Of a stretch of 64,000 nt of DNA, positions 5,727 through 64,000 are shown piece by piece (the first letter of the stretch is position 1; the number at the start of each line of letters is the position of its first letter). Both the position numbers and the translations under genes were made by a program. The notes under the pieces are model-generated. The model did no database searches and was not told the origin of the DNA. It saw only the letters and a list, made by a program, of their open reading frames with translations. Origin of the DNA: an uncultured Gammaproteobacteria bacterium (GTDB taxonomy: Bacteria > Pseudomonadota > Gammaproteobacteria > CAWCPV01); the NCBI GenBank assembly GCA_963797555.1, contig CAWCPV010000020.1, positions 1 to 64,000 of the forward strand, read 5' to 3'.

Positions 5727-5770
5727 GTACCGGGTCGGTGAGAGCGCTGGGGGCGGCGAGTCGTGGCCAA

Positions 5771-5869
5771 GCCGCTGACCCGGCTGATGTTGGCCTTGAA
5801 GTAGTCGAAGGCGACCTTCACCGCCTCCTTGGCGGCGCTGCTCGAGCCTAGGCCGGAGACATTCAATTT
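5771..5869 (-). pseudogene. brxL: Fragment of BREX Lon-like protease BrxL
   Basis: KLNVSGLGSSSAAKEAVKVAFDYFKANISRVSG resembles the BrxL C-terminal Lon-domain segment; cut by the IS1380 end at 5870. Confidence 0.55.
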
Positions 5870-7095: not shown

Positions 7096-7767
7096 ACGTT
7101 TGTTCTTGAACCGCCCGATGAGCTCCTTCTTTTGGGTATCGACCGAGACCACGGGCAGACCCCGCTGCAGAAAATCGCTCACGCTCGTACCGATGAACTC
7201 GAACTGCGCGTTGCGATCGGGATGGTCCGAGCCTTCTCGGGTCTTGCGATTGGACTGCATACTGTAGCGGAGATCATCGAGCAGTCTCCACACCGTCGCC
7301 TGCGATACCCGATGCCCCCTGTCCCGAAGCTCTGCCGCCAGCTTGGTCGTGCTCTTGCAAGTCCAGCGCAACGGCGACATCGGATCGCCTCGGGTCACCG
7401 GATCGAGCAGTCGATCCAGATCCGAGAGCAGCGTCTCGTCCTGCTCCTGTTGTCGCTTACGCCCACCGCCGGGTCTTCGAATCCTCCGGCGCTCCTCCAC
7501 CCGCGCCGCTTCCCGACCAGCTCTCCTCAGCTCCTGCATCCCCGCGTGTACGGTGGTGCGAGATACACCGGCTGCCTTGGCTCCACGGCTCACGCCTCCA
7601 TAGCCCAAAGCGCTCGCCTCCGCTGCCAGACAAACTCGCAACGAGCGCTCGTCCAATAGCGGTGCGAGTATGCGGTATTTCACCCTCAGTGCATCCTCCG
7701 CTACCATGGACCCAGAGCATAGTCAGAAGCCAACAACTGTTCAAGTTATTATGCATAGGCGCCTTAG
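7096..7767 (-). mobile_element. ISAzo13-family transposase, N-terminal part only
   Basis: LAAEASALGYGGVS, RIRRPGGGRK, GDPMSPLRWTCKST, DRNAQFEFI, SVDTQKKELIG; joined to the IS1380 remnant at ~7100. Confidence 0.85.
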
Positions 7768-47028: not shown

Positions 47029-48174
47029 ATGGAAGTGTCTTTTTACCGGCTCACCTGGCACGCCCAGCTCGCGGCTGGCGCCTTGCTGTTCGTGTTGTCG
47101 CTCGCGATCGAGGCCGCCGTGCTTACCGAATACTTGACCAACGCGGTCCTCGCCGCGCCGCTCGCCCTCGGCCTGGAAGTCAGCAAGGCGGTGACCATCG
47201 TGCTCCACCGCTTCCTCACCGGGCAGGACCGGGGCAGCTACCCGGCGTCGGTACGCTCCATCGTTCTCGTTTTTCGAGCGGCCCTGCTGGTGCTGTCCGC
47301 TCTATGCTCGCTGATGTACCTCGCCCACAAGCTCGATCGCCCGCACCTGGAAGCGGTCCGCCAAGCCGACCTGGCGAGTATAGAACACGCCTATACGGCC
47401 GATCGCTCCCGCCTCGAGCGACAGTTCGCGCGCCAAGGGACCGAGACCGACAAGGTGGTCGCCGCCCGTTTCGCACAACTGCGGGAGCAGGCCGCAGACG
47501 GTTACCGGCCCGCCATCCGGGGCCTGCAAGCCCAGCTCACCGTGGAAATGGACAACTCCGTGAAAGGGAACTTCGTCGGCCCTCGCTACCGGACGATCGC
47601 TTCGCGCCTCGAGCAGGAGAAGTCCGCGTACCGGGAGCGCCTGGATGGACTCGCCGAGCGGGAGGCACGGGAGCGCGCCGAGAGCTTGGGCTCGCTCCGC
47701 GACGCGCAGGAGCGGGACCTGTCGCGGCTGCGCAGCGTCTTCGAGGCTCGTGCGGCGCATCTGCGCGGCGAAGATTATGCGGGAGATAGCCGGGTGGAGA
47801 ACCCCATGATCACCGCCTTCACTCGGGTGGTGCATCGGGTCACCGGCCTCGACCTGGACCCCCTGCTGTTCATCTTCCTGTTTTCGGTCTTTATCAGCCT
47901 CCTCATGGAGCTTGGCATCGTGGCGAGCTTCGAGACGCTCACCAGCTCCCACCTGCCGATCCTCTCTGCGGCCCACCGCATGAAGCTCCAGGTCACCAAG
48001 CACCGGATCGAGTCCGAGGGAGACTTGCAGACCGCCCGGATCGACGACGCGGCACAGCGCCAGAGAACGGCAGGATGGGTACGGGACATCGCTCGTTCAG
48101 TCGGCTTCGGCGCGGGCGGCCTCGACCGCAAGCTTGCGGATCCGGCGGAGCCCGGCGGATCTGGTTTCAAATAG
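47029..48174 (+). CDS. Uncharacterised membrane protein (about 3 TM, long coiled coil, 1 TM); DUF4407-like architecture
   Basis: Hydrophobic N-terminal helices, a helical middle with EMDNSVKGNFVGPRYR, and a C-terminal TM; GGAGGAG RBS. Confidence 0.7.
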   Translation: MEVSFYRLTWHAQLAAGALLFVLSLAIEAAVLTEYLTNAVLAAPLALGLEVSKAVTIVLHRFLTGQDRGSYPASVRSIVLVFRAALLVLSALCSLMYLAHKLDRPHLEAVRQADLASIEHAYTADRSRLERQFARQGTETDKVVAARFAQLREQAADGYRPAIRGLQAQLTVEMDNSVKGNFVGPRYRTIASRLEQEKSAYRERLDGLAEREARERAESLGSLRDAQERDLSRLRSVFEARAAHLRGEDYAGDSRVENPMITAFTRVVHRVTGLDLDPLLFIFLFSVFISLLMELGIVASFETLTSSHLPILSAAHRMKLQVTKHRIESEGDLQTARIDDAAQRQRTAGWVRDIARSVGFGAGGLDRKLADPAEPGGSGFK

Positions 48175-48210: not shown

Positions 48211-48756
48211 ATGCCTGAAAACCGCGGGTCGGGAGACTCCCACACCGCCACCTACCACCCGGAGATCCTCCGGGCGCCGGTGGCGGACAACTCGGCGCTG
48301 GTCGACTCGGCGCTCGCCGCGCACCGGCAGAACTTCCTGCTCCGCCTGTTCCCGAACGACCAGGAGCGGGCGGTGCGCGGCCATGAGCTGGACCAGATCA
48401 AGGCCGGCTTCGAGTTCCGCCGCCGTGCCCTGCAGATGGCGGTGGAGACGAAGCTCCAGGCCATGGAGGAGATGTGCAACCACGTCCTGGTCACCGGCAA
48501 GAGCGAGATCCGCCGGCAGCGCCAGGAGTTCTTCGCCGAGCAGCAGCTCAAGCTGCAGACGGCCATGGACCAGCACGCGGAGCGCTTCAACACCCGCCTG
48601 GAGCGGCGTCTGGCGGAGCTTCAGCGTTACCAGAACCCGCAGCTCCGGCAGCGGGAGGAGCAGCGCCTGCTGCGGGCGCTGGATCAGTTCCACGAGATGA
48701 TCGAGCAGCTCTCCCAGGACTTCATGGCCATCATCCATGAAGGCGTCCACCGCTGA
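48211..48756 (+). CDS. Uncharacterised alpha-helical/coiled-coil protein
   Basis: 181 aa, strong host codon bias, GGAGG RBS, 26 bp before cas2. Confidence 0.75.
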   Translation: MPENRGSGDSHTATYHPEILRAPVADNSALVDSALAAHRQNFLLRLFPNDQERAVRGHELDQIKAGFEFRRRALQMAVETKLQAMEEMCNHVLVTGKSEIRRQRQEFFAEQQLKLQTAMDQHAERFNTRLERRLAELQRYQNPQLRQREEQRLLRALDQFHEMIEQLSQDFMAIIHEGVHR

Positions 48757-48782: not shown

Positions 48783-49067
48783 TTGACCACACAGCCCGCC
48801 ATCATCGCCTACGACATCGCGAGCGACGCCACCCGGCGGCGGGTGCGCCAGGTGGTCCAGGAGTGGCGCCTCGACGGCCAGAAGTCGGTGCACGAGTGCC
48901 TGCTGACGGAGGCCCAGGCGCAGGAGCTGTTCCTGCAGCTCGCCGAGACGTTGTCGGGCACTCGGGACCGGTTGCTGCTCGCCTGGGTGGCGCCTCACCG
49001 GGCGTGCATGGCGCGCGGGAAAGGCCGGATCGGCGGCCCGCCCTTCGGGGCGGCACGGGTGATATGA
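48783..49067 (+). CDS. cas2: CRISPR-associated Cas2 (copy 1)
   Basis: IIAYDIASDATRRRV...QKSVHEC; TTG start with GGAGG RBS. Confidence 0.88.
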   Translation: MTTQPAIIAYDIASDATRRRVRQVVQEWRLDGQKSVHECLLTEAQAQELFLQLAETLSGTRDRLLLAWVAPHRACMARGKGRIGGPPFGAARVI

Positions 49068-49071
49068 GGCG

Positions 49072-49432
49072 ATGGCCAAACGCGGCTGGTATCTGCTCGC
49101 CTACGACATCGCCTGCCCGCGCCGGCTGCAGAGGGTGCAGCGGCTCCTGAAGGGCGAAGGGCTCGCGGCGCAGCTCTCGGTGTTTTTCGTGTTCGGGTCG
49201 CAGGCCGAGGTCTCGGGGCTCCTCGACCGTGTGGCGGAGCGGATCCACGTCCGGGAAGACGATGTCCGCTGCTGGCCGATTCGACCATCCGGGGGCGGTG
49301 TGGTTCCACGGCGAGCCCCCAGTCAAAGGCCCCCTGGCACCGCCGGGCCGCAGACCTCGGCCCGAACAGGCGGAGAGCAAGAAACGGCGCGGCTCGGCGG
49401 TGCTCCGTATCCTGGGGAGGTGGCGGGCTTGA
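49072..49432 (+). CDS. cas2: CRISPR-associated Cas2 (copy 2); read in frame with cas1 in this assembly
   Basis: YLLAYDIACPRRLQRV...QLSVF...EDDVR; a plausible C-terminus (DHPGAVWFHG...) lies in the +1 frame ending at TGA 49432. Confidence 0.8.
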
Positions 49433-50469
49433 CCGGGGAGTTGCTGGTGGTGCTCGACCGTCGGGAAAGCACGGTTCGGCTCGAGGGTCGCGCCTTGCGC
49501 GTCCAGCATGCAGGCGGATGGGAGCGCATCCCCCTGGGGCTGGTGGGCCTGGTGGTGGTCCACGGGAGCCCCTCGGTGTCTTGCGACGTCTGGCGCGCCC
49601 TGGCGGAGCGCGGCGTGCCCGCGGTCATGCTGCCGTCGCGGGGCACCGGCGCGGCCGCCTGGGCCGGTGCCGGGCTGTCCACCAGCATCCAGGTACGGCG
49701 GCGCCAGCACCGGGCGGCCTCGGACCCTCCGCAACGCCTCGCGGTGGCGCGGGAGATTGTGCTGGCCAAGCTGTCTGCCCAGCGAGCCCTCGTACAGGGA
49801 CTGGGTTCCGGCACGATCCCGGTCCTGTTCGACACGGGGGGGACCGCCGCCCTGGTGGCGACGCTGGACAGCCAGTTGGCCGCGGCCCGCACGGCTCCCG
49901 ACCCAACCACCCTCATGGGGGCCGAAGGGGCAGCCGCCTCAGCCTGGTACCAATGGCTCTGCGAACATTTGCCGGGCCGCTGGCGCTTCAGCGGCCGCAA
50001 CCGCCGCCCACCGCGCGACCCGGTCAACGCACTGCTCTCCCTCACCTACACCCTCGCCATGACCGAGGCCCGGTACCAGCTCGAAGCCGCCGGGCTGGAC
50101 CCCGCCTTGGGCTTCCTGCATGGGGTGGTGCCCGGAAGAGACTCCCTGATGCTGGACGTGGTGGAGCCGCTGCGTCCAGGTGTCGACGCTTTCGTGCTGC
50201 GCCTGCTCGAACGGGTGGTCGAGCCGCGGGACTTTCACTACAGCCAGCGGGACGGCTGCCGGCTCAACAAAGCGGCGCGGGGAACGTATTACCAGGCGTG
50301 GGCCGCCTATCGCCTGGAATGGCCGGACCTCGAAGCGCGCGCTGCCGCCGGCAGCGAAGAAGAAGCGCCTGCTTACGCAGGCACGCTCTCCGGTGCCGCC
50401 TGGCGGGTCGTCCAATCCTTGCGGCGTCTCCTGCCCGACTTGGGCGACGAGCCCCAGTCCGATGGGTAA
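49429..50469 (+). CDS. cas1: CRISPR-associated integrase Cas1
   Basis: LMGAEG, FSGRNRRPPRDPVNALLS, GFLHG, LMLDVVEPLRP; TTG start with GGAGG RBS. Confidence 0.93.
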   Translation: MTGELLVVLDRRESTVRLEGRALRVQHAGGWERIPLGLVGLVVVHGSPSVSCDVWRALAERGVPAVMLPSRGTGAAAWAGAGLSTSIQVRRRQHRAASDPPQRLAVAREIVLAKLSAQRALVQGLGSGTIPVLFDTGGTAALVATLDSQLAAARTAPDPTTLMGAEGAAASAWYQWLCEHLPGRWRFSGRNRRPPRDPVNALLSLTYTLAMTEARYQLEAAGLDPALGFLHGVVPGRDSLMLDVVEPLRPGVDAFVLRLLERVVEPRDFHYSQRDGCRLNKAARGTYYQAWAAYRLEWPDLEARAAAGSEEEAPAYAGTLSGAAWRVVQSLRRLLPDLGDEPQSDG

Positions 50470-51296
50470 GCTGCTGGACCGGGCACTGACGCCCGATGCC
50501 GTCAACCGCGCCTGGAAGAGCGTCCGAAACGACCGCGCACCGTGGCATGTCGGGATGAGCAGGACGGAAATGGAACGGAATCTTGCGACCCACCTGCTGC
50601 GCCTGGTCGATGATCTGCGACAGGGCCGGTACCGCCCCGATGCCATGAGGCAATTTACGATCGCCAAGGGAGACGGCCGCCAGCGCGTGCTCTCCGCCCT
50701 CACCCTGCGGGACAAGCTGGCGCAGCGCGCGGTCCTGTCGGTTCTCGAGCCCATCGGCGAACAACTGTTCCACCACGACAGCTTCGGCTACCGGGCCGGG
50801 CGCAACGTCGCCATGGCGCTGGCACGGGTCCGGGAGCGGGTGCACTGCGGTCTTCCCTGGCTGGTGGACGCGGACATTCGGGCGTTCTTCGATAACATCC
50901 CCCACCGCCCGCTGCGCAAGGCGCTGGCGCGTGTCGTCCCGGACCGGGAGGTCCTGCACCTCATCGACCAGTGGCTCGAGGTCGGCACGTACCACACCGG
51001 CATCCTCACCGGCCCCCGGGGGGTCCCCCAGGGGGCTGTCATCTCTCCGTTTCTCTGCAACGTCTACCTGCACCAGCTCGACGGACGGCATGCGCGAAGC
51101 GGCGTACCCTTCGTTCGTTATGCCGACGACTTCCTGCTGTTCGCTCCCGACGAGCGGACGGCCGCCAAGGCCCTGAAGCTCGTCGGCGTATACCTGCGGG
51201 AGTCTCGACCTCGAGCTCCACCCCGAAAAGACCCGGGTAGTGCTCTCCGGACCCCAGGTCAGCTTCCTCGGACAACCGCTGCCTGCGCCGCCGTGA
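50462..51296 (+). CDS. Stand-alone group II intron-like reverse transcriptase (CRISPR-associated); frameshift ~51200
   Basis: IAKGDGRQRVL, DKLAQRA, SFGYR, DADIRAFFDNI, GVPQGAVISP, RYADD; LHPEKT...FLG in the shifted frame; no maturase or endonuclease domain; overlaps the cas1 end. Confidence 0.9.
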
Positions 51297-51316
51297 CATC
51301 GTACGAGCCTAGCTAG

Positions 51317-51663: not shown

Positions 51664-53894
51664 GGCAGAACGCAGACCTGATGAAGAAGGGATTGAGACA
51701 AGCCTAAACTTCCGCTTTCACTCCCCACGTCGGCAGAACGCAGACCTGATGAAGAAGGGATTGAGACTTGACAAGAAGAGCTATTGCCGCATTATGCCAG
51801 AGGCAGAACGCAGACCTGATGAAGAAGGGATTGAGACATCGGCTGCCGCGCATATCCAACTTCCCGATCTCGGGCAGAACGCAGACCTGATGAAGAAGGG
51901 ATTGAGACATGGACGCCCTGAACGGCGCCGTCAACTCCACGGGCAGAACGCAGACCTGATGAAGAAGGGATTGAGACCGGAACAGCCCGGGGACGCCCAT
52001 CGGGATCAGGTGGCAGAACGCAGACCTGATGAAGAAGGGATTGAGACCGTAGCGTTGGGTGACATACTGCACGATGTCAGGGGCAGAACGCAGACCTGAT
52101 GAAGAAGGGATTGAGACCCGAGAGCCTGCTCTATCGGACTTACATCCCCCGGCAGAACGCAGACCTGATGAAGAAGGGATTGAGACACTGGGCGCGCATC
52201 CCGGCCTACACGCGGTAATAGGGCAGAACGCAGACCTGATGAAGAAGGGATTGAGACCTCACCTCTTTCGATACTGGTAAGGTCATCGAGGGCAGAACGC
52301 AGACCTGATGAAGAAGGGATTGAGACTTCCGTGATACCCGCAATAGAGCGTCATCGCCAGGCAGAACGCAGACCTGATGAAGAAGGGATTGAGACGCGTA
52401 TAGAACCTACCGAACGAGATGATCTTTCCGGCAGAACGCAGACCTGATGAAGAAGGGATTGAGACATGAGCCGGCGTAGTCAGCTATCTGTAGGGCAGAA
52501 CGCAGACTGATGAGGGATCAGAACGCAGCACCTGATGACGAAGGGAATGCAGACCTGATGAAGAAGGGATTGAGACTTGCCACTGACACTCGCAGGATCG
52601 ACGGGCAGAACGCAGACCTGATGAAGAAGGGATTGAGACGACTTGGAGCGCCGCATATTCCGCCAATGTGAGGGCAGAACGCAGACCTGATGAAGAAGGG
52701 ATTGAGACCGATGCGATCCATCTCCTCAAAGCGCGCCTCGAGGGCAGAACGCAGACCTGATGAAGAAGGGATTGAGACTTCCCGAAGGCGGACGGACCAT
52801 CCTGTGTACGCCGGCAGAACGCAGACCTGATGAAGAAGGGATTGAGACCTCCCGAAAGAGCTACCAGCGCTGTTCGCCTCCGGCAGAACGCAGACCTGAT
52901 GAAGAAGGGATTGAGACAGATACAACCTCGGCGGTGCGTCGATCAGGACTTGGCAGAACGCAGACCTGATGAAGAAGGGATTGAGACCCATACGTGATTG
53001 CCGCTAGTAATAGATCAATGAAGGCAGAACGCAGACCTGATGAAGAAGGGATTGAGACCGCCTAAGGTAGTCCTCTGTGCTCTCCTTTCCCTGGCAGAAC
53101 GCAGACCTGATGAAGAAGGGATTGAGACAACGTCGCGAAAATCGTGAACGCTCCGGTTGGGGGCAGAACGCAGACCTGATGAAGAAGGGATTGAGACTCC
53201 AGTCCTTTGATGTAATCGCATGGTGCTAACAGGCAGAACGCAGACCTGATGAAGAAGGGATTGAGACAATTTGAGCAAGGCAGGGTCAAACCATTATCTT
53301 GCGGCAGAACGCAGACCTGATGAAGAAGGGATTGAGACGCTATTCGAAGTCGCATTTGACCACCTCCTCGAGGGCAGAACGCAGACCTGATGAAGAAGGG
53401 ATTGAGACACGTGGACGCAGAGCGACACAGTCGAATTGCCAGGGCAGAACGCAGACCTGATGAAGAAGGGATTGAGACGCCGTGATTCCAGCTACCGCCG
53501 TCAATTTCTTGTGGCAGAACGCAGACCTGATGAAGAAGGGATTGAGACCACCTGTCCGGCAGGTAACTGCTAAGGCTTATGGGCAGAACGCAGACCTGAT
53601 GAAGAAGGGATTGATACTGGAGAAAGAGCGGCACACCTCACTTCACCAGCGGCAGAACGCAGACCTGATGAAGAAGGGATTGAGACATGTTCCTCCCGCG
53701 TTATCAGTGGATTGGCGTGGCAGAACGCAGACCTGATGAAGAAGGGATTGAGACCTGTAGGGATGTGGTCGTTTGGATAGAGAGCCGTAGGCCGAACGGA
53801 GACCTGATGAACAAGGGATTACGACGGCGACCGGAAGGTCACCGTGGCCATGTCCCTTGGCGGGACGGGGATCTGGTGAAGAAGGAGTTAGGAC
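51664..53894 (+). CRISPR. CRISPR array, 36-bp repeat GGCAGAACGCAGACCTGATGAAGAAGGGATTGAGAC, about 32 repeats and 31 spacers
   Basis: Repeats every ~69-71 bp; spacers mostly 32-35 bp; garbled unit at 52494-52576; variant at 53582; degenerate repeats at 53790 and 53859. Confidence 0.98.
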
Positions 53895-53995
53895 GACATT
53901 TTCGACAGCCGATGCGGTCAGCGCGGCGCTGATGTGCCATGGGGGCGGTGGGTGTTGCGAATATCAACGTCACAACGTGGAAAGGAGAAAGCGCC

Positions 53996-54871
53996 ATGGG
54001 TAAGAGCCGCAAGAAGGCGCGGTCTGGGCCGCCGGCCATCCAGGCCGAGCGTGCCTTCGCCGCTATCAAACAGACATTCGGCTCGAACAAACCGCTGGCC
54101 ATCGGTCTAGCGGCCTTGCTGCTACTGACCTTTGGCTGGTTCGTGAATGCGACTTACGACCTGCCCCTTTTGCTGGATGGAAACACTGCCTTGGGGTTTC
54201 GGCTGCGGGTGGTGGGGGGCCTTTTGGCCTTTCTCCTTGTGTCCGTCTGGCTGGTCTGGATGGCTAGCCGTGCGAACGTGACTGTCCCAGTGATCGTGGT
54301 GCAGACACCCGACCCGCCCAAGGTCGCAGGCCTTATCACGTTTCTGAGCCCGCCCGGCGCCGATAGGGCGCAGATCGAGACCTTTGCGGCCAGCACCGTT
54401 GGCGAAGCAGAGCCACCCGACCCCCGTGCGTCTCTGAAGGGCTCGTGGCGAATGCCCCTTGAGGCCCTGGCCTACCACGCAGAGCGGCTCAAGTACCTGG
54501 TGGTCATCCCCTCCGCCGATGACCCCAGAGACCCGCAGGGCAAACCTGGAACTTGGCGGGACATGGAACTGTTCAAGGCCGTGGTCGCGCGGTATAGCGG
54601 GGGTCGGGTTGCCGCGGAATGCCTACCCGACTGCCACCAGGGTGTGGATTACGAAGATGCCCGCGCCGCAAAGGATGGCGTGGATAGCGCCTATGCGTCG
54701 CTTCTGCAACGCGGACTTAAAACCTGCGATATCCTGGTGGACATCACCGCCGGACAGAAACCCACCACGATTGCCGGCGCCGCAGTGGCGCTCGTGGAAG
54801 ATCGTCAGTTCCAGTACGTCAGCACCCGCGACTACCGCGTAGTGACCTACAACATCACCTATCAGAGCTGA
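53996..54871 (+). CDS. Transmembrane CARF effector (Cam1/Cam2-like)
   Basis: Two N-terminal TM helices and a Rossmann-like domain with GLITFLS and LVDITAGQKPTT (CARF motif II); no nuclease domain. Confidence 0.75.
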   Translation: MGKSRKKARSGPPAIQAERAFAAIKQTFGSNKPLAIGLAALLLLTFGWFVNATYDLPLLLDGNTALGFRLRVVGGLLAFLLVSVWLVWMASRANVTVPVIVVQTPDPPKVAGLITFLSPPGADRAQIETFAASTVGEAEPPDPRASLKGSWRMPLEALAYHAERLKYLVVIPSADDPRDPQGKPGTWRDMELFKAVVARYSGGRVAAECLPDCHQGVDYEDARAAKDGVDSAYASLLQRGLKTCDILVDITAGQKPTTIAGAAVALVEDRQFQYVSTRDYRVVTYNITYQS

Positions 54872-54873
54872 CC

Positions 54874-55197
54874 ATGGGCACCATTTATGTCATCAACTCC
54901 CCCGTCCTCACCGACTACGGGTTCTGGCGCTTCCGTGGCCCATTATCCGTGGACGAGGCCCGCGACATGCTTGCGGGCGGTTTCGTGTCCGCCATCGGCC
55001 ATGAATCGGCGGCCCAGTTCCTGTCCCGACGCCTCGGGGTGACCGTCCCGCACAACCGGGTGCGCGTGAGCATGGCGCCGGGTGACCGAGCGCTGGTGCT
55101 GCGGCTGGGCGCCCGTCTGCCCGAAGGGCGGCAACTGACCGATGAGGACATGGAGCAACTTCCGTTCGAGCTGGGGCTGATGGAGCGGGAGGGATAG
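54874..55197 (+). CDS. crn2: DUF1874 / AcrIII-1-like ring nuclease (Crn2)
   Basis: YVINS...FVSAIGHESAA...NR...GDRALVLRL..RLPEG, the STIV B116/YddF family signature. Confidence 0.85.
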   Translation: MGTIYVINSPVLTDYGFWRFRGPLSVDEARDMLAGGFVSAIGHESAAQFLSRRLGVTVPHNRVRVSMAPGDRALVLRLGARLPEGRQLTDEDMEQLPFELGLMEREG

Positions 55198-55529
55198 CCG
55201 GCCACCTGGCACGGACGGGAGTCCGGGACGTCCGAGTCGGCCCGAGAACGCGGACAGGTGTTACGGTGGTTCCTTGCTTGCTGGAACGTCATCAGAGCAA
55301 ACCGGCCTGGAACGTCTGGCGCCGGGCCCCGTTATCGGGTGACGCGATGAACCTCAGTCCTGCCGTCGGCGCCTACCCCGGGGGGCGAGCCACGCGAACA
55401 GCAGCCGATCCCGGCTCAAGTCGACGGACTCCACCAACTGCAGGAATAGCTCCTCCGCCTCGGGTTCGGTAGGCGGGTACTGCACACCCTGCGCGAGTGG
55501 CGGCTGGATCTGCAGGAATCGGTTCACGA

Positions 55530-55738
55530 GTCCAGATTCCGCGCGAGATATACTGTATGACGGAGCACGCCACCGAGAGCAGCAGCAACGCTACTCGGAA
55601 CGACAGCACCATGGAGGACGGAACCGAGGCAGTCGCCACCGCATGGGTCTTCATGAAGCGGTACACGACGATGGCGAACGCCTTACTCAGCTCCAAGCCG
55701 CCGGAGAGGGCAAGAGCGAGCACCGCGCTATCGAGGAA
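55530..55738 (-). pseudogene. Fragment paralogous to the 47029..48174 membrane protein
   Basis: FLDSAVLALALSGGLELSKAFAIVVYRF...SMVLSFRVALLLLSVACS...YLARNLD aligns with YLTNAVLAAPLALGLEVSKAVTIVLHRF...SIVLVFRAALLVLSALCS..YLAHKLD. Confidence 0.75.
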
Positions 55739-55799
55739 CGGTAATCCGGGGTTCTAGCCCGTGTTACACTGTCTTACGCTATACGGAGCGGAGGATTCC

Positions 55800-56015
55800 A
55801 TGAGCACTCTGACCATCCGCATCGACGACAAGCTCGATGCCGAGCTCGAGCAGCTCGCGAGGATCACACAGCGCACCAAGAGCGATCTCGCGCGCGAGAT
55901 GCTGCGCCGGCAGGTCGCCATCGCTCGATTCCGGGAGCTGCGCAGAAAGGCCATGCCGTTTGCGGAGGCAGCGGGCTACCTGACGGATGAGGACGTGTTC
56001 CGCGACATCTCGTGA
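55800..56015 (+). CDS. Ribbon-helix-helix antitoxin
   Basis: MSTLTIRIDDKLDAELEQLA...TKSDLAREML; GGAGG RBS. Confidence 0.82.
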   Translation: MSTLTIRIDDKLDAELEQLARITQRTKSDLAREMLRRQVAIARFRELRRKAMPFAEAAGYLTDEDVFRDIS

Positions 56016-56416
56016 GGGTATTTTTGGACACCAACGTGCTCGCAAGTGCATTGACCGCCCGCGGCCTGTGCGCCGATGTCCTGCAGACGGTCCTTGCTGA
56101 CCACCAGCTTCTGTTCTCCGCCCAGGTTCTCGCCGAGCTCGCCGATGTCTTGCCACGCAAGTTCGGCCTCCCGTCCGCCGTGGTAGATGAATTCCTCACT
56201 CTTCTTACGGACGAAGGAACGCTGTCCGCCGCACCCGGCCCATGTCCGATCCTGCCTGATAACCCAGCCGATGCCGTCATCGTCGCCAGCGCGCTGGCGG
56301 GCGGGGCGGAAGTCTTCGTCACCGGGGACAAGGAACTGTTGGATCTCGGGAAGGCCGAAGGCGTGCCCATGCTGTCGCCGCGGCAGTTCTGGGAGCGGTT
56401 GGCCGCGGGCACGTGA
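56012..56416 (+). CDS. PIN-domain toxin
   Basis: VFLDTNVLAS...D..IVASA...FVTGDKELL; GTGA overlap with the antitoxin. Confidence 0.85.
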   Translation: MRVFLDTNVLASALTARGLCADVLQTVLADHQLLFSAQVLAELADVLPRKFGLPSAVVDEFLTLLTDEGTLSAAPGPCPILPDNPADAVIVASALAGGAEVFVTGDKELLDLGKAEGVPMLSPRQFWERLAAGT

Positions 56417-56658
56417 GTGTCCCCAGTCCGCGCAACCGCGGCGGACTGCTTGGTCCAGCACGGCCGCGCCTGGGCCGCTGAAACGCGGATACGCAGGAGA
56501 GCCTAACCGAAAGAAGGAGGAATCACTGGGCTGGCAAATTTGCCGAGGGGTACGTTGAATAGCGACCGATGACGGCTCTCGTCAATGCCCGCCGTTCAGG
56601 GCAAAGAACACTTGGTGAGGCCAGGACGGCCCACGGAGGAGGCCGACGGGAGGACCCG

Positions 56659-57768
56659 TTACAGCTTTTTGTCGAGTCGGTCGAGAACAAATATCTCGCC
56701 CTCAAAGTGGCCGAACAGCCGCTTCGCGTCTTGGTCGGCCCAGGCATCGCATTCGTGGGTGCTGTCATCCACCGGATTCTTGAGGATCTTGAAATCGAGG
56801 CTGCTCAAAGCGATCTGCTGATTCGATTCCAGGTACCGAGCCAGTTGATCTACACGCTCATTCACCAAGCGCAGCCGCTCCCCCGCGAGGGTGCGGATGC
56901 TGCGTTCAAAGCCGGAGCCGAAGCGTAGCCGGCGCGAGGGTGAGTCCCAAAGGCGTTCCTCGTAGATCCGTGGGCAGGCTTCCCGCCAGACGATCTCACC
57001 CCAGGCTGAAAGAGTAGCCTGTCCCCCGTCGACGAACAGCAGGGTATCCGGGATTCCAGCCACTTCCGCCGCCGCCACCGCAAGCTGTGCCCCCATCCGG
57101 CGGAAGGCGGCAAGATGGGCCCGCACGGTCGCCTCTGCATCGAGCTTGAGCGGGAGACGCGGCAAGCGCAGCAGCTCGTGACCCGATTCGAAGACATATA
57201 CGCTCTCGTCCGCATAAAGCATCGCGAGGGCCTGCATGAACCCTTGTACGCTCTTGAACCCACCGGTGAGGTTGAAGACTACACGGTAGCCTTGCCGCGA
57301 ATACTTCCGAAGGGTTCCGGCACACCAGGTGGCAAGTTCGGTCATGGCAGCCTGGAAACCAGGCAGCTCCTCTGTCTGCAAGTCCTTGACCCGGTAAACT
57401 TCTGCTCCCAAGCCGGCCTGCTGCAGTATGTCTGCGATTATCCGTGCGCCATTCTCTCCTAACCAGGTATCTGTACAGAGCAGCACATGGTGATCGGGCG
57501 CACGGGCAGGGAACCTTCCGTGATACCAGCGCAGCAGGCCATTCAGCTCGGCGCTCAGGGCCATCAATATCGCGGGTTCCCTCCGATCGACAAGTTCCTC
57601 GCGCCGTTTCTGGATGTGCGGCTCGATTAACTCTCGTACCTCGGTTGGGATCTGTTCCGCGGAAACTGCATTTGCATACTTGGTAAGTAGCTTTCGCAAC
57701 TCATCCTGAACCTGATTGGTAAACAGGCTGGTCCCGCAGGTGGAAACGATGAGGTGTCGCTGCGCCAT
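56659..57768 (-). CDS. cami1: CARF(APE2256)-wHTH-RelE effector, Cami1-like mRNA interferase
   Basis: STCGTSL, SAELN, FNLTGGFKS, YVFE CARF motifs; RelE-like C-terminus (LDFKILK...THECDAWAD..AKRLFGHFE). Confidence 0.82.
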   Translation of the reverse strand: MAQRHLIVSTCGTSLFTNQVQDELRKLLTKYANAVSAEQIPTEVRELIEPHIQKRREELVDRREPAILMALSAELNGLLRWYHGRFPARAPDHHVLLCTDTWLGENGARIIADILQQAGLGAEVYRVKDLQTEELPGFQAAMTELATWCAGTLRKYSRQGYRVVFNLTGGFKSVQGFMQALAMLYADESVYVFESGHELLRLPRLPLKLDAEATVRAHLAAFRRMGAQLAVAAAEVAGIPDTLLFVDGGQATLSAWGEIVWREACPRIYEERLWDSPSRRLRFGSGFERSIRTLAGERLRLVNERVDQLARYLESNQQIALSSLDFKILKNPVDDSTHECDAWADQDAKRLFGHFEGEIFVLDRLDKKL

Positions 57769-57819
57769 ATTCCTCTCCGAACTGGTCAAAAGCATCGCGG
57801 ACCGGAGTGCGAGCTGATG

Positions 57820-58119
57820 TGTCCATCGCGCCCATCCGCAAGACCTTGTACTCCTCGACCCGCGCCCCGAGAGCGCGCATGTCCTCGGCCGTCAGCTCCT
57901 TGCCGCGCAAGTCCGGGGCAGCTCCAGGGCCAGGTGCAGGTAGCGCCCGCCCCGCTCGCCCACGTCGGCAGCGAGGTTGACCGGCAGCGAGCCGATCACT
58001 ACGTCGGCGGCCTCGATCCGCGCCACGTCCAGGTGATCCACGATCTGGTCTACTCGAATCCCCCCGTCCTGCGTCCAGTTGCGGGCACCGGGGTGGCGGG
58101 TAACGAAGTAGGTGGTCAT
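57820..58119 (-). CDS. csx16: Csx16 (VVA1548 family), frameshift ~57915; end approximate
   Basis: TYFVTRHPGA..W, DVVIGSLPVNLAADV; then LRGKELTAEDMRALGARVEEY in the other frame. Confidence 0.82.
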
Positions 58120-58153
58120 AGCTGTCGCTCGCTTTCTCGTAGTGCATAGTTAC

Positions 58154-60265
58154 CTAACCGCCTTTGGGATCGATCTTGATGATTTTCCAGTTGGGTCCGC
58201 CCCGGTGCTCCACGGTGATGTCCGCCCTGAGCCTGCCCTGCTGCAAACGCTTAAGTGCAGCGGGGTCCAGGGAAGCTAGGAGCGAATCAGCCTCAGCGCC
58301 CATCACAAAGGCACGTTCCTTTTCTTTAGAGGCGGAAATCTCCCTCTTTCCTTTGTTGAAGACCAGAGGCACGCCTAGCCAACGGTCAGTGCCCCCGGGT
58401 GATGAAGTTTTCAGACCTGAAGCACCACGCTGAGGATATGCTGCCAACACGAGTCGGTCCTTCTTCGCTTTCACGAAGTCGTTGCGACCATCCTCCTGAG
58501 CAAGAACCATGTGTCGCAGATCGCCCCGGAATGCCCGCGCACTCGCTGCATCAGCCATTCCTCGAAGGGCCCTCATTTGAGGGCTCTTTGCCCACCCCTG
58601 CACCTGTTTTTCCATAAAGCTCACGAATTTTTCCATACAGTTGCTGAGGCTGAGAGGCGTAGTAATTGGATCATTACTGACGACGTGGCTCGACTCGATC
58701 TGAACGCTCGCTTGCCCATATCCATATGGTTTGCCCATTCCGATTGAATGATGCATCGCTTCGTCACCACCCCAGGTAAGCGCCCAAATTAATGCTCCTA
58801 ATTCTTCGGGCTTAAGATTATGAAACACAACTCTGCCGGAGAATTGAGCACCCCCGTCGATCGGAAATAGGTTTACCGAAACTGCATCGGTTCCTTCTGA
58901 GGAGTGCGTCAATGCAGGTCGCACAGGATAGCGCTTCCAGCCCCGTATCTCGGAATCTTTGTCCATATAAGTCTTATAGGTGTCCCGAGCGAGCGTCGTA
59001 CCGTCCACGGTCGGTTGTGCGACATAATTCGGGTAATAGGTCGGCTTCGGCGAATTCAGCACTACCCTTCGTGCATCCAATTCCAGGACTCCCGCCCTCT
59101 CAGTGCAGGGTTCGAACCATACCCGTCCCTTTAGTGGCGTAAGGCCATCTACCACATCGGTCATACCGAACATTAGGCAAGCGAAATCATCGGGACGCTT
59201 CTCGGCGTGGGATGAAGATGTGTGTTTGATGGTCTCTACGATCGAGTGCGGATATGCAAGCTTGAACATAAGCGCCAAGCCTAGAGAAGCGATCGTCCCC
59301 CCGAGGTCGGTCAAGAAGAATATTGGTATGCGGGCACGGCTTTTCCAGTAGGCCCACTCGTCGGTTTCCGCGTGGATGTGCATAAAGTCCCGCATCACCG
59401 CCTCAGGCACTTCAACCTGTCGGGTCGTGGGCACATCGTAAAACACGAACTCCAGATGCTTCTTGCCCGCCGCAGGCGGGACGCGGGCCGCAGGTTGGCC
59501 GGTGAAAACGAGCATACCCTCGACTGCACCTCTCCCCACGTCGGCCGCCTTACTGTATACCAGCATCTTGCCGCCGCTGTGCGGGTGGGCTTCCTGTAGG
59601 CCAGGAGTGAACCGGATGTCGAGGGAACGGGGCCGCCATCGACTATATTTTTCACGGGCACAGACACGGGGCACTGCACGCCACCAGCGATCCCCGGAGA
59701 GTACAGCGAGTTCATCGTGATCGATACGGGAGTAAGCACAAGGTGTGACAAACCACCGATCACCTTGGAAGCTCAGCCAGCCTGCCTGCGAAAGAGGTCG
59801 GTACATGTTCTCGCCGACTTTCTCGGTCATGAATCTCCCATAGAAGCCACGCGCCGGATTGGTCAGGTCGCGCACCGAGTAGCGTGCATCATCCACCATC
59901 CCCATCCTTGAGAAAGTGATAATCTCCAGCACGTTCCGGACCATGCCCTTTAGGCTCGATCCGGGGATGGCGTAGCCGTCCGGCGTCTGGAAAAACCGCA
60001 CCTCGCCGGGTGCCTGTTGGCTCGCCTTGGTCTGCTGTCCACCGACCAGGATCGGGGTGTGCGCGGTAAGGGTGAAGGCGATCTCGCCGCTCAAGCCGTC
60101 CTTGAACGGGACGTCGTGAGAAACGAGGTGTGCCCAATCGGGGACTACAACCTGCTCCGAAAGAGGGACGAAGTTGTAAGGGGAGTTAATCGCCTGCATC
60201 GCTGGCTCTTGGGGCCGATTAGCGCCCGGTGGGCGAGGGTTGTTCCGGTGGTGCTGTCTGGGCAT
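58154..60265 (-). CDS. Type III-D Cas7 with large insertion (TIGR03986-like RAMP)
   Basis: SPYNFVPL, SHD...LSGEI, IPGSSLKGMVR, LNSPKPTY, RGWKRY, IGMGKPYGYG. Confidence 0.88.
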   Translation of the reverse strand: MPRQHHRNNPRPPGANRPQEPAMQAINSPYNFVPLSEQVVVPDWAHLVSHDVPFKDGLSGEIAFTLTAHTPILVGGQQTKASQQAPGEVRFFQTPDGYAIPGSSLKGMVRNVLEIITFSRMGMVDDARYSVRDLTNPARGFYGRFMTEKVGENMYRPLSQAGWLSFQGDRWFVTPCAYSRIDHDELAVLSGDRWWRAVPRVCAREKYSRWRPRSLDIRFTPGLQEAHPHSGGKMLVYSKAADVGRGAVEGMLVFTGQPAARVPPAAGKKHLEFVFYDVPTTRQVEVPEAVMRDFMHIHAETDEWAYWKSRARIPIFFLTDLGGTIASLGLALMFKLAYPHSIVETIKHTSSSHAEKRPDDFACLMFGMTDVVDGLTPLKGRVWFEPCTERAGVLELDARRVVLNSPKPTYYPNYVAQPTVDGTTLARDTYKTYMDKDSEIRGWKRYPVRPALTHSSEGTDAVSVNLFPIDGGAQFSGRVVFHNLKPEELGALIWALTWGGDEAMHHSIGMGKPYGYGQASVQIESSHVVSNDPITTPLSLSNCMEKFVSFMEKQVQGWAKSPQMRALRGMADAASARAFRGDLRHMVLAQEDGRNDFVKAKKDRLVLAAYPQRGASGLKTSSPGGTDRWLGVPLVFNKGKREISASKEKERAFVMGAEADSLLASLDPAALKRLQQGRLRADITVEHRGGPNWKIIKIDPKGG

Positions 60266-60276
60266 GACCGTTCTCC

Positions 60277-60765
60277 TCATTCTTCTCCGAAGCCTATGAA
60301 GCAAGCGGCAAAGGGCTCCGCGCCGCGCTCCCGGTCGATCCGCCAATAGCGGCGGTAGCGCAGGCGATTCAGTTCGTCATCAATGGCGATCAGGGCCACC
60401 GTGTCGCAGAGGTATTGATATTCACCCCCTGCCGCCGGGGTATATCGGGTGGCGATCCAATTGCCCGTGCCGCCGTAACGGATGTGCAGGGATTCGCCTG
60501 CCGCATTGACGGCCTCAGCGGCTAGCATCATGCCGGTCGTGTGGTCCATCGCAGGGGGAGTCTCGGTGAAGGTCCGGTTAGCCGACTGAAAGCCGGCCCA
60601 GCCCTCCTTCGGCCCGAAAGCCACAAGCCGCGCGAGCGCATCCTCAGCGGAAGCCAGGCGCTCGGGCTTGGCCTCAAGCGAGGTGGTGTTGGGATGGATG
60701 GACGGCAGGCGGCTCTTGCCTCTGCGCACCCGATTGTAAAGATCAAGTAGTGTGGTCGCATCCAT
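60277..60765 (-). CDS. csx19: Type III-D subunit Csx19
   Basis: Lies between RAMP genes; C-terminal LRYRRYW...FIGF. Confidence 0.75.
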   Translation of the reverse strand: MDATTLLDLYNRVRRGKSRLPSIHPNTTSLEAKPERLASAEDALARLVAFGPKEGWAGFQSANRTFTETPPAMDHTTGMMLAAEAVNAAGESLHIRYGGTGNWIATRYTPAAGGEYQYLCDTVALIAIDDELNRLRYRRYWRIDRERGAEPFAACFIGFGEE

Positions 60766-62225
60766 TACGCGGCCTCCAGCCTTGCCTTGCCTTCGATCCA
60801 GGCGCCCTGGTCCGACCATTGGATTTCGCCATCGAAAAACCCATGTCCTTTGCCTGCGCCACCTCCCAGGGCGAGCCGCCCGACGCACAGATCTTGGAGA
60901 GCACACCGTAGTGCCTTGCGCGCTGTATCCGGGGCGCCGCCCGTATCGATGGTGACTTGAAGCTCAATGCCCTTGCCCCAAACCAGTTCCTCCATGAACA
61001 GCATGTGTTCCCGCACCCCGCCGGTGAACCGATCGATAGCGTTGTGCATCATGAGCTGGAGGTCTTCCTTCCGGAACGCTACGAAGGTGTCGTCGATGAA
61101 GACCCGGCCGGCTCGGCCTCTCTCGTCTTCTCGCGCGTGTTCCTTGCCGTCGCGGGCATAGCCGAAGAGCGCCCGCACTTCTGGACAGCGATCCGACTTG
61201 TCGTAGCTGACGAGGTCTTCCATCTCGTTTGCCCAGCGCCCGGCCAGGCGATTGGCGTGGAAGGCCACCCGGTGTGCGATCGCTCCCTTGACCGAGGAGG
61301 CGGGGATCAGCAGTTGGGCGGCAATCGGCTCGGCTTTATTGTCGTTCCAGATCACCCGCTGCTCCAACTTGGGCAGCAGGTCTGCCGGCTTGCCCTCGCT
61401 GTCCCTTCTAGTGGGCGTATCGCCCTGGCCGATGCGCCAGAAGGCTCGGGGTTTCAATTTGAGTGTGGCGATCACGAAGCGAGTGACGGTATCCGTGCCT
61501 GCTCGGCCGGGGTTCACCTCGCTCAACCCCGTGGTATTGTCAAGCCTGCGCGACTGGGCGGCAAAGCGGCGCCGTCCCTCTGCTGTTCGGAGGTTGAACT
61601 GACCTGAGTGCACCCGAACGACCCTTAGCCGACCGAGTCCGGCCCGAACCGCACCACCCAGGCGAAACACGGGATGGGCCAGCAGGTCCAGCAACTGGTT
61701 CCAACGTAGATCGTCCGCCCGGTCGCTCCACAGAGACAGCTCAGTGCTGAAGCGGTAGCCGGCCGGCAACACGGCTCGGTCGAACTTGCCGGTGTCGGTC
61801 GCCGCGCCCCGGTGGCCGATGCGCACCCGGTCACGATGGACAGGCGCAGCTTCCGCCTCGTAGGCAGCGCGCAGTAGGGCATCGGTTTCCAACCGCTCAC
61901 GGTCCCGCCCGGGCAGCAAGCCCTCCACAGGGCGTCCCTGGCTGTCCTGGATGGCTCCCCAGGACACATGCAGCCGCGACGGCTCGCCTTCGTCCTTCTC
62001 CTGAAAACCGAACAGCGCTTGCATTGACGCCTTATCGTGCAGGTCCCAAAAAAGATGCCGCAACACCCCGGCAAGCGCGGAACCCGGCAGGGCTGGAAAG
62101 CCGTTGGCGTCCCGCACCAGAATCACATCGAACACCCCGTCTGCGCCGCCCGCAGCGATGGACAGGGGCGTGGCCGCTTCGAGGGTTATGCGTGCCAGGT
62201 AGTAGTGGGGAACGTTGGGGGTCAT
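60765..62225 (-). CDS. Type III-D double Cas7 (Csm3-Csm3) fusion
   Basis: Two RAMP modules: TPLSI..LPGSALAGVLR..GGAVRAGLG, and IPASSVKGAI..NAIDRFTGG..GGGAGKGHG. Confidence 0.88.
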   Translation of the reverse strand: MTPNVPHYYLARITLEAATPLSIAAGGADGVFDVILVRDANGFPALPGSALAGVLRHLFWDLHDKASMQALFGFQEKDEGEPSRLHVSWGAIQDSQGRPVEGLLPGRDRERLETDALLRAAYEAEAAPVHRDRVRIGHRGAATDTGKFDRAVLPAGYRFSTELSLWSDRADDLRWNQLLDLLAHPVFRLGGAVRAGLGRLRVVRVHSGQFNLRTAEGRRRFAAQSRRLDNTTGLSEVNPGRAGTDTVTRFVIATLKLKPRAFWRIGQGDTPTRRDSEGKPADLLPKLEQRVIWNDNKAEPIAAQLLIPASSVKGAIAHRVAFHANRLAGRWANEMEDLVSYDKSDRCPEVRALFGYARDGKEHAREDERGRAGRVFIDDTFVAFRKEDLQLMMHNAIDRFTGGVREHMLFMEELVWGKGIELQVTIDTGGAPDTARKALRCALQDLCVGRLALGGGAGKGHGFFDGEIQWSDQGAWIEGKARLEAA

Positions 62226-63748
62226 CGGCGGGTCTCCTGTTTAATGACGGCCATCACCTCGCGCGCCAGCAGTTGAACGAAACGGGGGTCCGGCTCGGTG
62301 CCGAGGACCTCACGCAGCCAAGCGGCGAAGCTGCGGGTGGGATGATTTCGGTCGTCCCAGTGCTCGTCACTCCAGCCGGGCGCGGAGGGCTTGCAGACGC
62401 CGTTGTTCTCGTCGAATAGTTTCCGGGCCAAGTCTCCGCGCGCGGCCTTGGCCTCTGCCAGTGCGCTGCCCCACTGACTCGCCGAGGGACCGATCTCCGC
62501 CCTGTCCGCTAGACCCTTGAGACGGCGGGCTGAGCCGAGCAGTGCTCGGTATTCGTGGGCGAGCTCGCGCGCACGGGTAGCGCTATCTTGGCGGACCGAC
62601 TGACTCTTCCATCGTTCCTCCAACCACTCGACGAGCGGGCTGACCGGACGTTGTGGCTTTGCAGGTTCTGCGGCAGCCTTCGCCGGTGTGGCGAAGTGTG
62701 GCTGCTCGGTCGCCAGCAATGGCGAGTCAAGCGAAACCTGTCCCAGACCTGCCTCCCGGTGGGCGCCGAGTCCGGCGGCAATGCGTGCTCGCTCCATCTC
62801 GTTGAGTGAGCGTTCGAGCTGAAAAACTAGGACGCTGCCTTGGGCGAGCACCTGGCGTTCCAGATCCGGCCCGCCTCGGTGAGCATTCCAAGGGGAGTAG
62901 CGGCGCACCCGCACGAAGCTCTTATTCGCCAGCAGATCGCCCCGTGGCAGGCCCAGCGACTCTGGTCGCGGCGTCAGGGTGGGCTGACCGAAGTCGTCCA
63001 GGGCGGCCAAGTCAGAGAGCAGCCACATGATTGTCTCCTTCATCTTGGCCCCATCTCCGAGTGGGAGAGGAAGGTCCAGTGCCGCTCCAGGATCAGCCAC
63101 GATTTCTCGGATCTCGACACCGGCACGGCCGTACTCGGCACTCCGGGAGCGGCCTAGAAGGACCTCTTGCATCAGTACCTCTCCAAGCTTGTCAAGCAGC
63201 CCGTCGGAAACGTCAGCATCGGCGGTAACCCGTGAGGCGAAACGCTGCCCCGCCGAGAGGGAGTCGTAGCCGAACAGGGCCGCCTCACGGGCCCTGCCGG
63301 TCGTCGGGTCAATGGCGGTCTTGAGGCGCAACGCCTGGGTGGGCACGCATAGCTCTCCGCCAGCCGTGACATAGCCTCGCCGCAATTGCTGTGGTTGGTG
63401 CCCGTGAGGAAGTTCGTCCAGCAGCCCCAGGTGCCAGATGCGCTCGCCGACGAGCCGGCCACCTTCCTCTGCGCGCTCACCCTTGATATGGTGCCAGCAG
63501 AACGGCACGGGCCAGGCGCGTTCACCGTCCTCGGCGATAGGCAGGCCGTTGCCGAAACGGACCCTGCCGGAGTGAAACAGCAGAAAGGCATCCACAGTCG
63601 GGAGCGTGCGGTAGAGCTGTGCCGCGGCAGCGCCGAGGATGGCGCCTCCCGGAATGTAATCGAGTCCGCGATGCCCCCCCTCAGTGGCGGCCCGCTCACT
63701 GAAGACGCAGTCGTCCTTCAAGGTCAGGAACAGGTCGAAACCCTTCAC
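62222..63748 (-). CDS. csx10: Csx10 (Cas7-Cas5) with C-terminal Cas11-like helical extension
   Basis: LDYIPGGAILG, TAIDPTTGRA, LGRSRSAEYG, GLGAHREAGLG; C-terminal PSASQWG helical domain. Confidence 0.82.
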   Translation of the reverse strand: MKGFDLFLTLKDDCVFSERAATEGGHRGLDYIPGGAILGAAAAQLYRTLPTVDAFLLFHSGRVRFGNGLPIAEDGERAWPVPFCWHHIKGERAEEGGRLVGERIWHLGLLDELPHGHQPQQLRRGYVTAGGELCVPTQALRLKTAIDPTTGRAREAALFGYDSLSAGQRFASRVTADADVSDGLLDKLGEVLMQEVLLGRSRSAEYGRAGVEIREIVADPGAALDLPLPLGDGAKMKETIMWLLSDLAALDDFGQPTLTPRPESLGLPRGDLLANKSFVRVRRYSPWNAHRGGPDLERQVLAQGSVLVFQLERSLNEMERARIAAGLGAHREAGLGQVSLDSPLLATEQPHFATPAKAAAEPAKPQRPVSPLVEWLEERWKSQSVRQDSATRARELAHEYRALLGSARRLKGLADRAEIGPSASQWGSALAEAKAARGDLARKLFDENNGVCKPSAPGWSDEHWDDRNHPTRSFAAWLREVLGTEPDPRFVQLLAREVMAVIKQETRR

Positions 63749-64000
63749 GACGCACCCTCCAGGGTCAGAACGGCTCGCCCGAGCCCACGCGAGCGACGTG
63801 CCCCCACTCCCTGCACCAGCGGCAACGCCATCTTGACCAATTCCGGCCAGCGCGACGCCAGATCAGCATAGCGAGCGCCAAGCACGATATGCACCTGCGC
63901 GTACAGGGTGAGGGGCACCACCATCTCGATGCCACGCAGGGTCTTCTCCCTGGCGGTGCCCGTCTCGTGCTCGATCCCGGTACTAAAATGGCTGCGATAG
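63745..64000 (-). CDS. csm3: Cas7/Csm3 RAMP, C-terminal part (runs off the right edge)
   Basis: STGIEHETGTAREKTLRGIE...VGARRSRGLG glycine-rich loop; stop overlaps the csx10 GTG. Confidence 0.8.
   Translation of the reverse strand, partial: YRSHFSTGIEHETGTAREKTLRGIEMVVPLTLYAQVHIVLGARYADLASRWPELVKMALPLVQGVGARRSRGLGRAVLTLEGAS

Follow-up and report, generated by a model that had tools for sequence, protein, structure and literature searches.

A probable scrambled relic of a former adaptation cassette beside a type III-D CRISPR operon in an uncultured gammaproteobacterium

The closest described systems to the locus analyzed here are the reverse transcriptase (RT)-linked type III adaptation systems, in which, going by the text of the papers that describe them (PMC5513706; 10.1101/270033), cas1, cas2 and a group-II-intron-like RT are found by a type III operon and an array. 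The text of the second of these papers has RT adaptation modules evolving as separate units. It also describes type III loci stably linked to uncharacterised integral membrane proteins with no recognisable soluble domain, and proposes that these are membrane anchors of the CRISPR-Cas machinery (10.1101/270033). The window, by which we mean the whole 64,000-nucleotide stretch of DNA that was analyzed, has its cas1, cas2 and RT placed in the same way as the RT-linked systems. It differs from those systems, as far as their text describes them, in that the RT is unfused to Cas1 and in that the adaptation operon starts with three extra genes, encoding a membrane protein (mem), orf181, and a second Cas2 (cas2a). 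No description of this trio was found in a literature search that included text of PMC8632793, PMC12669027, PMC5513706, and 10.1101/270033. Our subject is a short stretch at 55354-55741, across the array from the intact adaptation operon, which we think is probably the scrambled relic of the III-D operon's former adaptation cassette, since exchanged for a cassette of other ancestry.

The intact cassette, the array, and the two genes that follow it are on the plus strand:

47029 to 48174, plus strand: intact membrane gene, first gene of the cassette, encoding P0001 of 381 aa (AlphaFold2 mean pLDDT 91.9)
48211 to 48756, plus strand: orf181, a conserved soluble helical protein (80 clusters; after mem in 10 of 10 distinct loci)
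48783 to 49067, plus strand: cas2a, stand-alone additional gene of the Cas2 family, TTG start (Pfam CRISPR_Cas2, E = 9.6e-9)
49072 to 50469, plus strand: single open frame that encodes both cas2 (residues 6-71) and cas1 (residues 127-411) (Pfam)
50180 to 51316, plus strand: unfused group-II-intron-like RT (Pfam RVT_1, E = 7.5e-33; PADLOC RT, E = 6.7e-82)
51664 to 53825, plus strand: CRISPR array, the sole one in the window, with 31 matches to a 23-nt repeat core
53939 to 54871, plus strand: CARF+TM protein (PADLOC CARF8--CARF_TM, E = 2.3e-36)
54874 to 55197, plus strand: Csx16/STIV B116-like protein (PADLOC Csx16, E = 1.4e-40; Pfam STIV_B116-like, E = 2.5e-25)

The adaptation operon has two Cas2-family genes, the stand-alone cas2a and a Cas2-Cas1 open reading frame (ORF) of 465 aa. 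Tested as 48786-49067, cas2a passes Pfam PF09827 with 35.8 bits over a gathering cut-off of 23.8, and the longer ORF at 49072-50469 matches Cas_Cas1 with E = 5.1e-67 and CRISPR_Cas2 with E = 2.4e-9. Several relatives have cas1 and the second cas2 as separate matches in different frames. The RT domain takes up residues ~99-350 of its ORF, so the true RT start is probably near 50460. Orf181 is ~180 aa long and is represented by 80 clusters at 42-70% identity, all "hypothetical" or unnamed except for one odd label; it has no Pfam, NCBIfam, or strong PADLOC match. In the array, the last repeat (53790-53825) is degenerate, which puts the leader on the RT side. One unit, 52466-52577, is irregular, with a spacing of 111 nt versus ~70 and with a partial, mutated extra repeat.

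The gene at 54874-55197 pairs with the CARF+TM gene downstream of the array and is cas2-like by position only. As a correction to the initial annotation of this DNA, Pfam and PADLOC both make it Csx16/STIV B116-like (DUF1874) and not cas2. The STIV B116-like/DUF1874 family includes ring nucleases degrading cyclic tetra-adenylate. The CARF+TM and Csx16-like genes (53939-55197, plus strand) are convergent with the relic.

On the other side of the relic there is a small plus-strand module, and beyond that the minus-strand interference operon:

55797 to 56015, plus strand: RHH antitoxin (Pfam RHH_1, E = 1.9e-6)
56012 to 56416, plus strand: PIN toxin (Pfam PIN_3, E = 2.6e-10; NCBIfam TIGR00305)
56659 to 57795, minus strand: CARF-RelE effector, last gene of the III-D operon and upstream of the relic (PADLOC CARF7--CARF_RelE, E = 3.8e-122)
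57701 to 63999, minus strand: III-D interference genes (PADLOC, NCBIfam)

The genes in the last of these lines encode a Csx16/VVA1548-like protein, a Cas7 of 730 aa, Csx19, a Cas7 of 486 aa, Csx10/Cas5, and a small Cas7, with Cas10d, CARF5, and Cas6 lying beyond the window edge at 64001-69066 of the contig (C20). The operon order on the minus strand is accordingly Cas6, CARF5, Cas10d, small Cas7, Csx10/Cas5, Cas7, Csx19, Cas7 (730 aa), Csx16/VVA1548-like, and CARF-RelE. PADLOC identifies the module as III-D, with E-values of 2e-138 and 2.4e-107 for Cas7_IIId, 4e-59 for Cas5_IIId, 1.1e-4 for Csx19, and, just beyond the window, 6.6e-73 for Cas10d. The CARF-RelE effector at 56659-57795 we take to be Cami1-like. 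CARF5, upstream of Cas10d (C20 66218-67608, L020 2218-3608, minus strand), is in two overlapping ORFs that match profile positions 2-154 and 154-349, the split being a frame shift or an assembly error. A few kb past Cas6 is a BrxHI/SngC-like helicase gene (C20 71726-73954, L020 7726-9954, minus strand), so the CRISPR locus may belong to a larger defence island.

The relic itself is in four pieces, with the prime marking the remains of a gene:

55354 to 55470, minus strand: cas2a' from residue 41 to the end, with its stop TGA at 55356-55354 (cas2a profile, E = 1.4e-9)
55471 to 55530, plus strand: cas2a' residues 18-38, inverted, reading RRVLHTLREWRLDLQESVHE (cas2a profile, E = 2e-7)
55533 to 55553, minus strand: mem' residues 97-103 (VYLARNL/D), with a one-base shift relative to the 55556-55741 piece
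55556 to 55741, minus strand: mem', family residues 35-96, in an open frame

The intact protein finds the larger mem' piece directly. A tblastn search with P0001 against the whole window returns only the gene itself and 55741-55556 on the minus strand, the runner-up having an E of just 0.5. The match takes in query residues 34-96 with 48% identity over 64 aa, and its E is 5.7e-8 under composition-based statistics, or 1.9e-8 when these are not applied. A profile made from 54 family members aligns with mem' over profile positions 35-96 at E = 8.7e-15, or 1.1e-12 in a search of the whole genome, and finds no further piece of mem in the six frames of the window. The initial annotation had aligned about 70 aa of this fragment by eye with the N-terminal TM region of 47029-48174, and that alignment is real: it stays significant after composition correction and with the profile. 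All three of the paired motifs on which it was based are present, but YLARNLD can be read only past a one-base frame shift at ~55554, where it spans 55553-55533. Family homology goes no further than that short piece, after which comes the break; the family motif at this place is MYLAxxLDRP. Over the whole genome (5.3 Mb on 20 contigs, a bin that is 84.6% complete), homology to P0001 is in two places, 47029-48174 and mem', and there is no third copy.

Five residues within the range of mem' are invariant or near-invariant in the family, namely E50, K53, R83, L86, and S90. All five are kept, and the frame is open over 62 codons, which indicates that most of the divergence predates loss of function. 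What is left amounts to residues 35-103 only, where the family gene is ~360 aa with four TM helices and a hairpin. Judging from its sequence, mem' is a relic and not a working family member. Its position is that of the family, as it comes downstream of CARF-RelE, on that gene's strand, and has the cas2a' pieces after it; the PADLOC gene map agrees with the earlier description of the fragment as co-oriented with the III-D/CARF-RelE operon and downstream of it.

The 5' truncation of mem' abuts the RHH-PIN module, with homology ending at residue 35, ~55 nt from the RHH start codon, and so the cut-off at this module is also as first described. The RHH and PIN genes overlap by 4 bases (56012-56015) and are a putative type II toxin-antitoxin by gene content. 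A search for their DNA elsewhere in the genome finds no copy, only two short chance-level matches. The module may have cut mem, or it may sit where a deletion ended. In the relatives, MNT-HepT pairs are found between type III ancillary genes and mem in L008 (9182-9818), L012 (7241-8621), and L014, so small toxin-antitoxin modules recur at this junction. In L014, the same junction has MNT-HepT and an AbiEii-like gene (9452-9754 and 5478-7371).

A candidate N-terminus for mem' had been proposed on the far side of RHH-PIN on the basis of the pentapeptide SFFRL. The pentapeptide is present at 56518-56504 on the minus strand, and a translation of the window in six frames has SF[FY]RL at two positions only (47038 plus, 56518 minus), versus 0.07 expected. 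However, the minus-strand interval 56417-56658 gives no match to the family profile even at E <= 100 with all filters off, and the region has no blastn match to the relatives and only weak tblastx matches away from the mem N-terminus. As the N-terminus of mem', then, SFFRL is not supported by the profile, blastn, or tblastx; it is unproven, and given the rarity of the pentapeptide we neither accept nor reject it.

Next to mem' in the relic is what is left of cas2a. When 55198-55800 is compared by tblastx and blastn with the relatives and with the window itself, it has homology to the orf181-cas2 interval. The cas2a' pieces were resolved by a DNA alignment with 10 intact copies together with a profile from ten cas2a proteins. 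The piece at 55471-55530 aligns plus/plus by blastn with the cas2a of L012 (80% over 56 nt), L013, L009, and L011. A minus-strand reading, LVNRFLQIQPPLAQGVQY, had been a candidate for cas2a residues 18-40 and was rejected, as it is the reverse strand of the homologous plus-strand piece. Since the two cas2a' pieces adjoin in the gene and have opposite orientations, there is one breakpoint between cas2a codons 38 and 41. A second breakpoint is where mem' ends, at codon 103, ~55531-55533. Everything from mem codon 104 through cas2a codon 17 is missing, a distance of 1,496 nt in the intact cassette. On the other end, the cas2a' stop is 157 nt from the stop of the Csx16-like gene (54874-55197), and with just that much left, none of the old cas2, cas1, RT, or array survives. 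No repeat remnants of a second array were found in the window, all 31 repeat-core matches being inside the single array. That cas2a' is found beside mem' argues that a whole older adaptation cassette stood there, and not a lone gene.

A search of 1.8 billion clusters gives 175 representatives of the membrane family at E <= 1e-3. In genomes the family is rare, with one occurrence among 60 class relatives and none among 400 sampled phylum genomes, and one metagenome scan with P0001 gave no locus. The loci used for comparison are 13 from collection scans and one from a single genome (G019). With repeats merged (L016 and L017 into L009, L018 into L015, and L019 into L010) there are 10 distinct loci. 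All 10 have the order mem, orf181, cas2a. The cas2, cas1, and RT genes then follow, co-oriented, in every locus that reaches that far (9/9; L013 ends early), and 5 loci have an array with the same repeat core after the RT. Upstream of mem there is a co-oriented type III operon in 8 of the 10, which is III-B in L006, L008, L010, L011, and L012 and III-D in L009, L014, and L015; the other two, L007 and L013, have <1.7 kb of upstream DNA. The gene order of the relatives is therefore type III operon, mem, orf181, cas2a, cas2, cas1, RT, much as the initial annotation had anticipated, and this order, with cas2a' adjoining the fragment, upholds its proposal that the interference operon was once followed by its own copy.

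Two of the relatives carry nearly the same cassette. L008 8246-14967 and L014 6596-15314 are 85-95% identical in DNA over a stretch that contains Csx16-like, MNT-HepT, mem, orf181, cas2a, cas2, cas1, RT, and array. Upstream of it they have no common DNA, with a III-B operon in L008 versus a III-D operon in L014. A common cassette with different interference operons is a direct case of a cassette changing partners, and it agrees with the separate evolution of RT adaptation modules as given in the text of 10.1101/270033. The CARF+TM gene is in L014 and is absent from L008. The mem gene of L014 (10001-11042) gives two P0001 matches in different frames, residues 3-270 and 293-348, which may be a frame shift in that genome bin.

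One can ask if the relic ever belonged to the III-D/CARF-RelE operon, or if it came from a plus-strand cassette that followed CARF-TM/Csx16 and was later inverted. A Csx16/STIV B116-like gene is less than ~1 kb upstream of mem and co-oriented with it in L006, L011, and L012, and a Csx16-like gene is further upstream of mem in L010. The relic abuts the Csx16 3' end, 157 nt away, and the 18-38 piece of cas2a' is on the plus strand. But the minus strand has three of the four pieces, about 310 nt out of 370, and two flanking inversions would be needed versus one internal inversion. A plus-strand origin also needs an array directly upstream of CARF-TM/Csx16, and no examined relative has CARF-TM after the array. 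We regard such an origin as rather unlikely.

Another possibility is duplication in place, with the intact cassette or its first genes copied locally and the copy then decayed, making the relic a true recent paralog. Having both copies in one locus, and no third copy in the genome, is what that would look like, and an AU test with mem' alone (68 columns) leaves the intact copy acceptable as its sister (p = 0.373). The degree of similarity speaks against it, being only 47-48% in protein and 73% in DNA (over 74 nt), and a pseudogene that had drifted so far would not retain all five invariant residues and an open frame of 62 codons. Both relic genes are closer to L008/L014 than to the intact copy, mem' by 54% identity versus 47% and cas2a' by 66% versus 60%. 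In a 68-row family tree, mem' is in a 7-row clade with P0095, P0023, P0005, P0047, L008, and L014 (SH-aLRT 99), and the intact copy is in a separate clade (99) with the 84%-identical P0002, L015, and P0003. A concatenated mem+cas2a tree (12 rows; 126 relic columns) joins the relic to L008/L014 with support of 80/76, inside a clade (96/97) that does not have the intact copy. When the relic and the intact copy are held together in the concatenated tree, the log-likelihood drops by 12.6 and the AU test gives p = 0.009, a value weakened by the tested group having been named after earlier trees were seen. As for the rest of the locus, the interference proteins in the window are nearest to those of L009/L014 (Cas7 46-47%; L015 28%), and L015 has the closest matches to the intact cas1, cas2, and RT, at 61-68%.

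With the trees and the AU test on the concatenation, replacement by a cassette of other ancestry fits better than duplication in place, which we consider improbable. The fragment had been called a decayed paralog at the outset; of that label, the family relic stands and the in-place duplicate is disfavoured by the concatenated test. The accompanying suggestion that the present plus-strand module may have replaced an older one gains from the same tree and test, which favour different ancestry.

We would be surprised if the fragment were a working small gene, for which the candidate is a 116-codon ORF at 55373-55723 (minus strand, GTG start) encoding a two-helix membrane peptide. Its frame is open and both hydrophobic helices are intact, but in its second half the ORF runs through cas2a DNA, out of frame or on the reverse strand, that gives no family signal, a search of 55100-56750 turned up no promoter-like site, and the short family matches that do occur among the representatives may be contig-end fragments. 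Chance similarity between hydrophobic Ala/Leu-rich stretches in a GC-rich genome is hardly credible, for although the match falls in a transmembrane stretch of biased composition, its E of 5.7e-8 is already composition-corrected, the profile gives 8.7e-15 with the tblastn runner-up at 0.5, and a second cassette gene, cas2a', is alongside in the expected order.

The exchange of a former III-D cassette, the reading we prefer, would have left the present arrangement as follows. The old cassette of mem, orf181, cas2a, cas2, cas1, RT, and array would have continued the III-D/CARF-RelE operon on the minus strand. The first 34 codons of mem would have been lost where RHH-PIN now sits. A deletion of ~1.5 kb would have removed the remainder of mem, orf181, and the beginning of cas2a, accompanied by an inversion with its breakpoint between cas2a codons 38 and 41, and everything after cas2a, namely cas2, cas1, RT, and array, would also have gone. 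We infer both the order and the number of these rearrangements. Spacer acquisition for the III-D system would now come from the intact plus-strand cassette and the only array. The relic itself would be without function, and the locus would record an exchange of adaptation modules and not a duplication in place.

The membrane protein that heads the cassette has no Pfam, NCBIfam, or PADLOC match, with none in Pfam at E <= 0.1. Weak matches to DUF4407 (PF14362) are found in 7 of the 54 family members, the best at E = 1.8e-6, and a protein-atlas search with P0001 gives unnamed clusters plus a DUF4407 cluster at a score of 0.79. The layout of DUF4407 is similar, with membrane helices and a coiled coil. 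What the two have in common is weak profile matches, whereas P0001 itself has no Pfam match, and from this the family is best described as a distant DUF4407 look-alike, which we do not file as a member. Papers mentioning DUF4407 number only three in a literature search, and going by the listing none of them is about its function.

The AlphaFold2 model of P0001 (pLDDT 91.9) has three membrane helices, an antiparallel coiled-coil hairpin of 68+61 residues, a fourth membrane helix, and a long C-terminal helix. In the model, a small beta tip on the hairpin carries the conserved motif EMDN..G.F.GPRYR. A sequence-profile search of the Protein Data Bank (PDB) with P0001 gives coiled-coil noise only (E >= 0.32), Foldseek with the model against the PDB gives nothing at E <= 0.001, and a wide VIA-align search gives only generic coiled-coil hairpins, with a best Z of 10.5 that is under the meaningful level for helical models. 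Across the family, the short loops facing one way have Lys/Arg counts of 1.3 and 2.6, against 0.2 for the opposite side, so by the positive-inside rule the N-terminus and the C-terminal helix would be cytoplasmic and the hairpin would be outside.

CARF+TM effectors such as 53939-54871, presumably Cam1-like, are also membrane proteins of this locus. Unlike them, the P0001 family has no CARF or other sensor domain that could be found, and so nothing suggests cyclic oligoadenylate switching. In comparison with the type III-linked membrane proteins of 10.1101/270033, as its text describes them, the P0001 family travels with adaptation genes and not with effector or CARF genes. A complex prediction for the membrane protein with orf181 has a score of 0.04 (mark 0.32), which counts neither way. 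We would guess, weakly, that the membrane protein ties adaptation to the cell envelope. Our working guess for the trio of mem, orf181, and cas2a is that it couples the Cas1-Cas2-RT integrase to the envelope, a guess that comes from strict gene linkage alone.

That CRISPR systems swap adaptation modules is generally deduced from trees that conflict. In this locus, the displaced adaptation module would have left a physical scar beside its replacement, and two relatives have a near-identical cassette behind operons of different type, one III-B and one III-D. The relic also points to a rare trio, mem, orf181, and an extra Cas2, that heads the unfused-RT adaptation operon in every one of the 10 distinct loci. 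We offer as a tentative possibility, with more doubt than confidence, that the trio, undescribed to date, are obligatory partners in RT-dependent type III spacer acquisition and tie the Cas1-Cas2-RT integrase to the envelope, and that the seven-part cassette moves between III-B and III-D interference modules as a unit, with the relic as the footprint of such a swap. If the trio does act in spacer uptake, it would link the acquisition of RNA/DNA spacers to the membrane.
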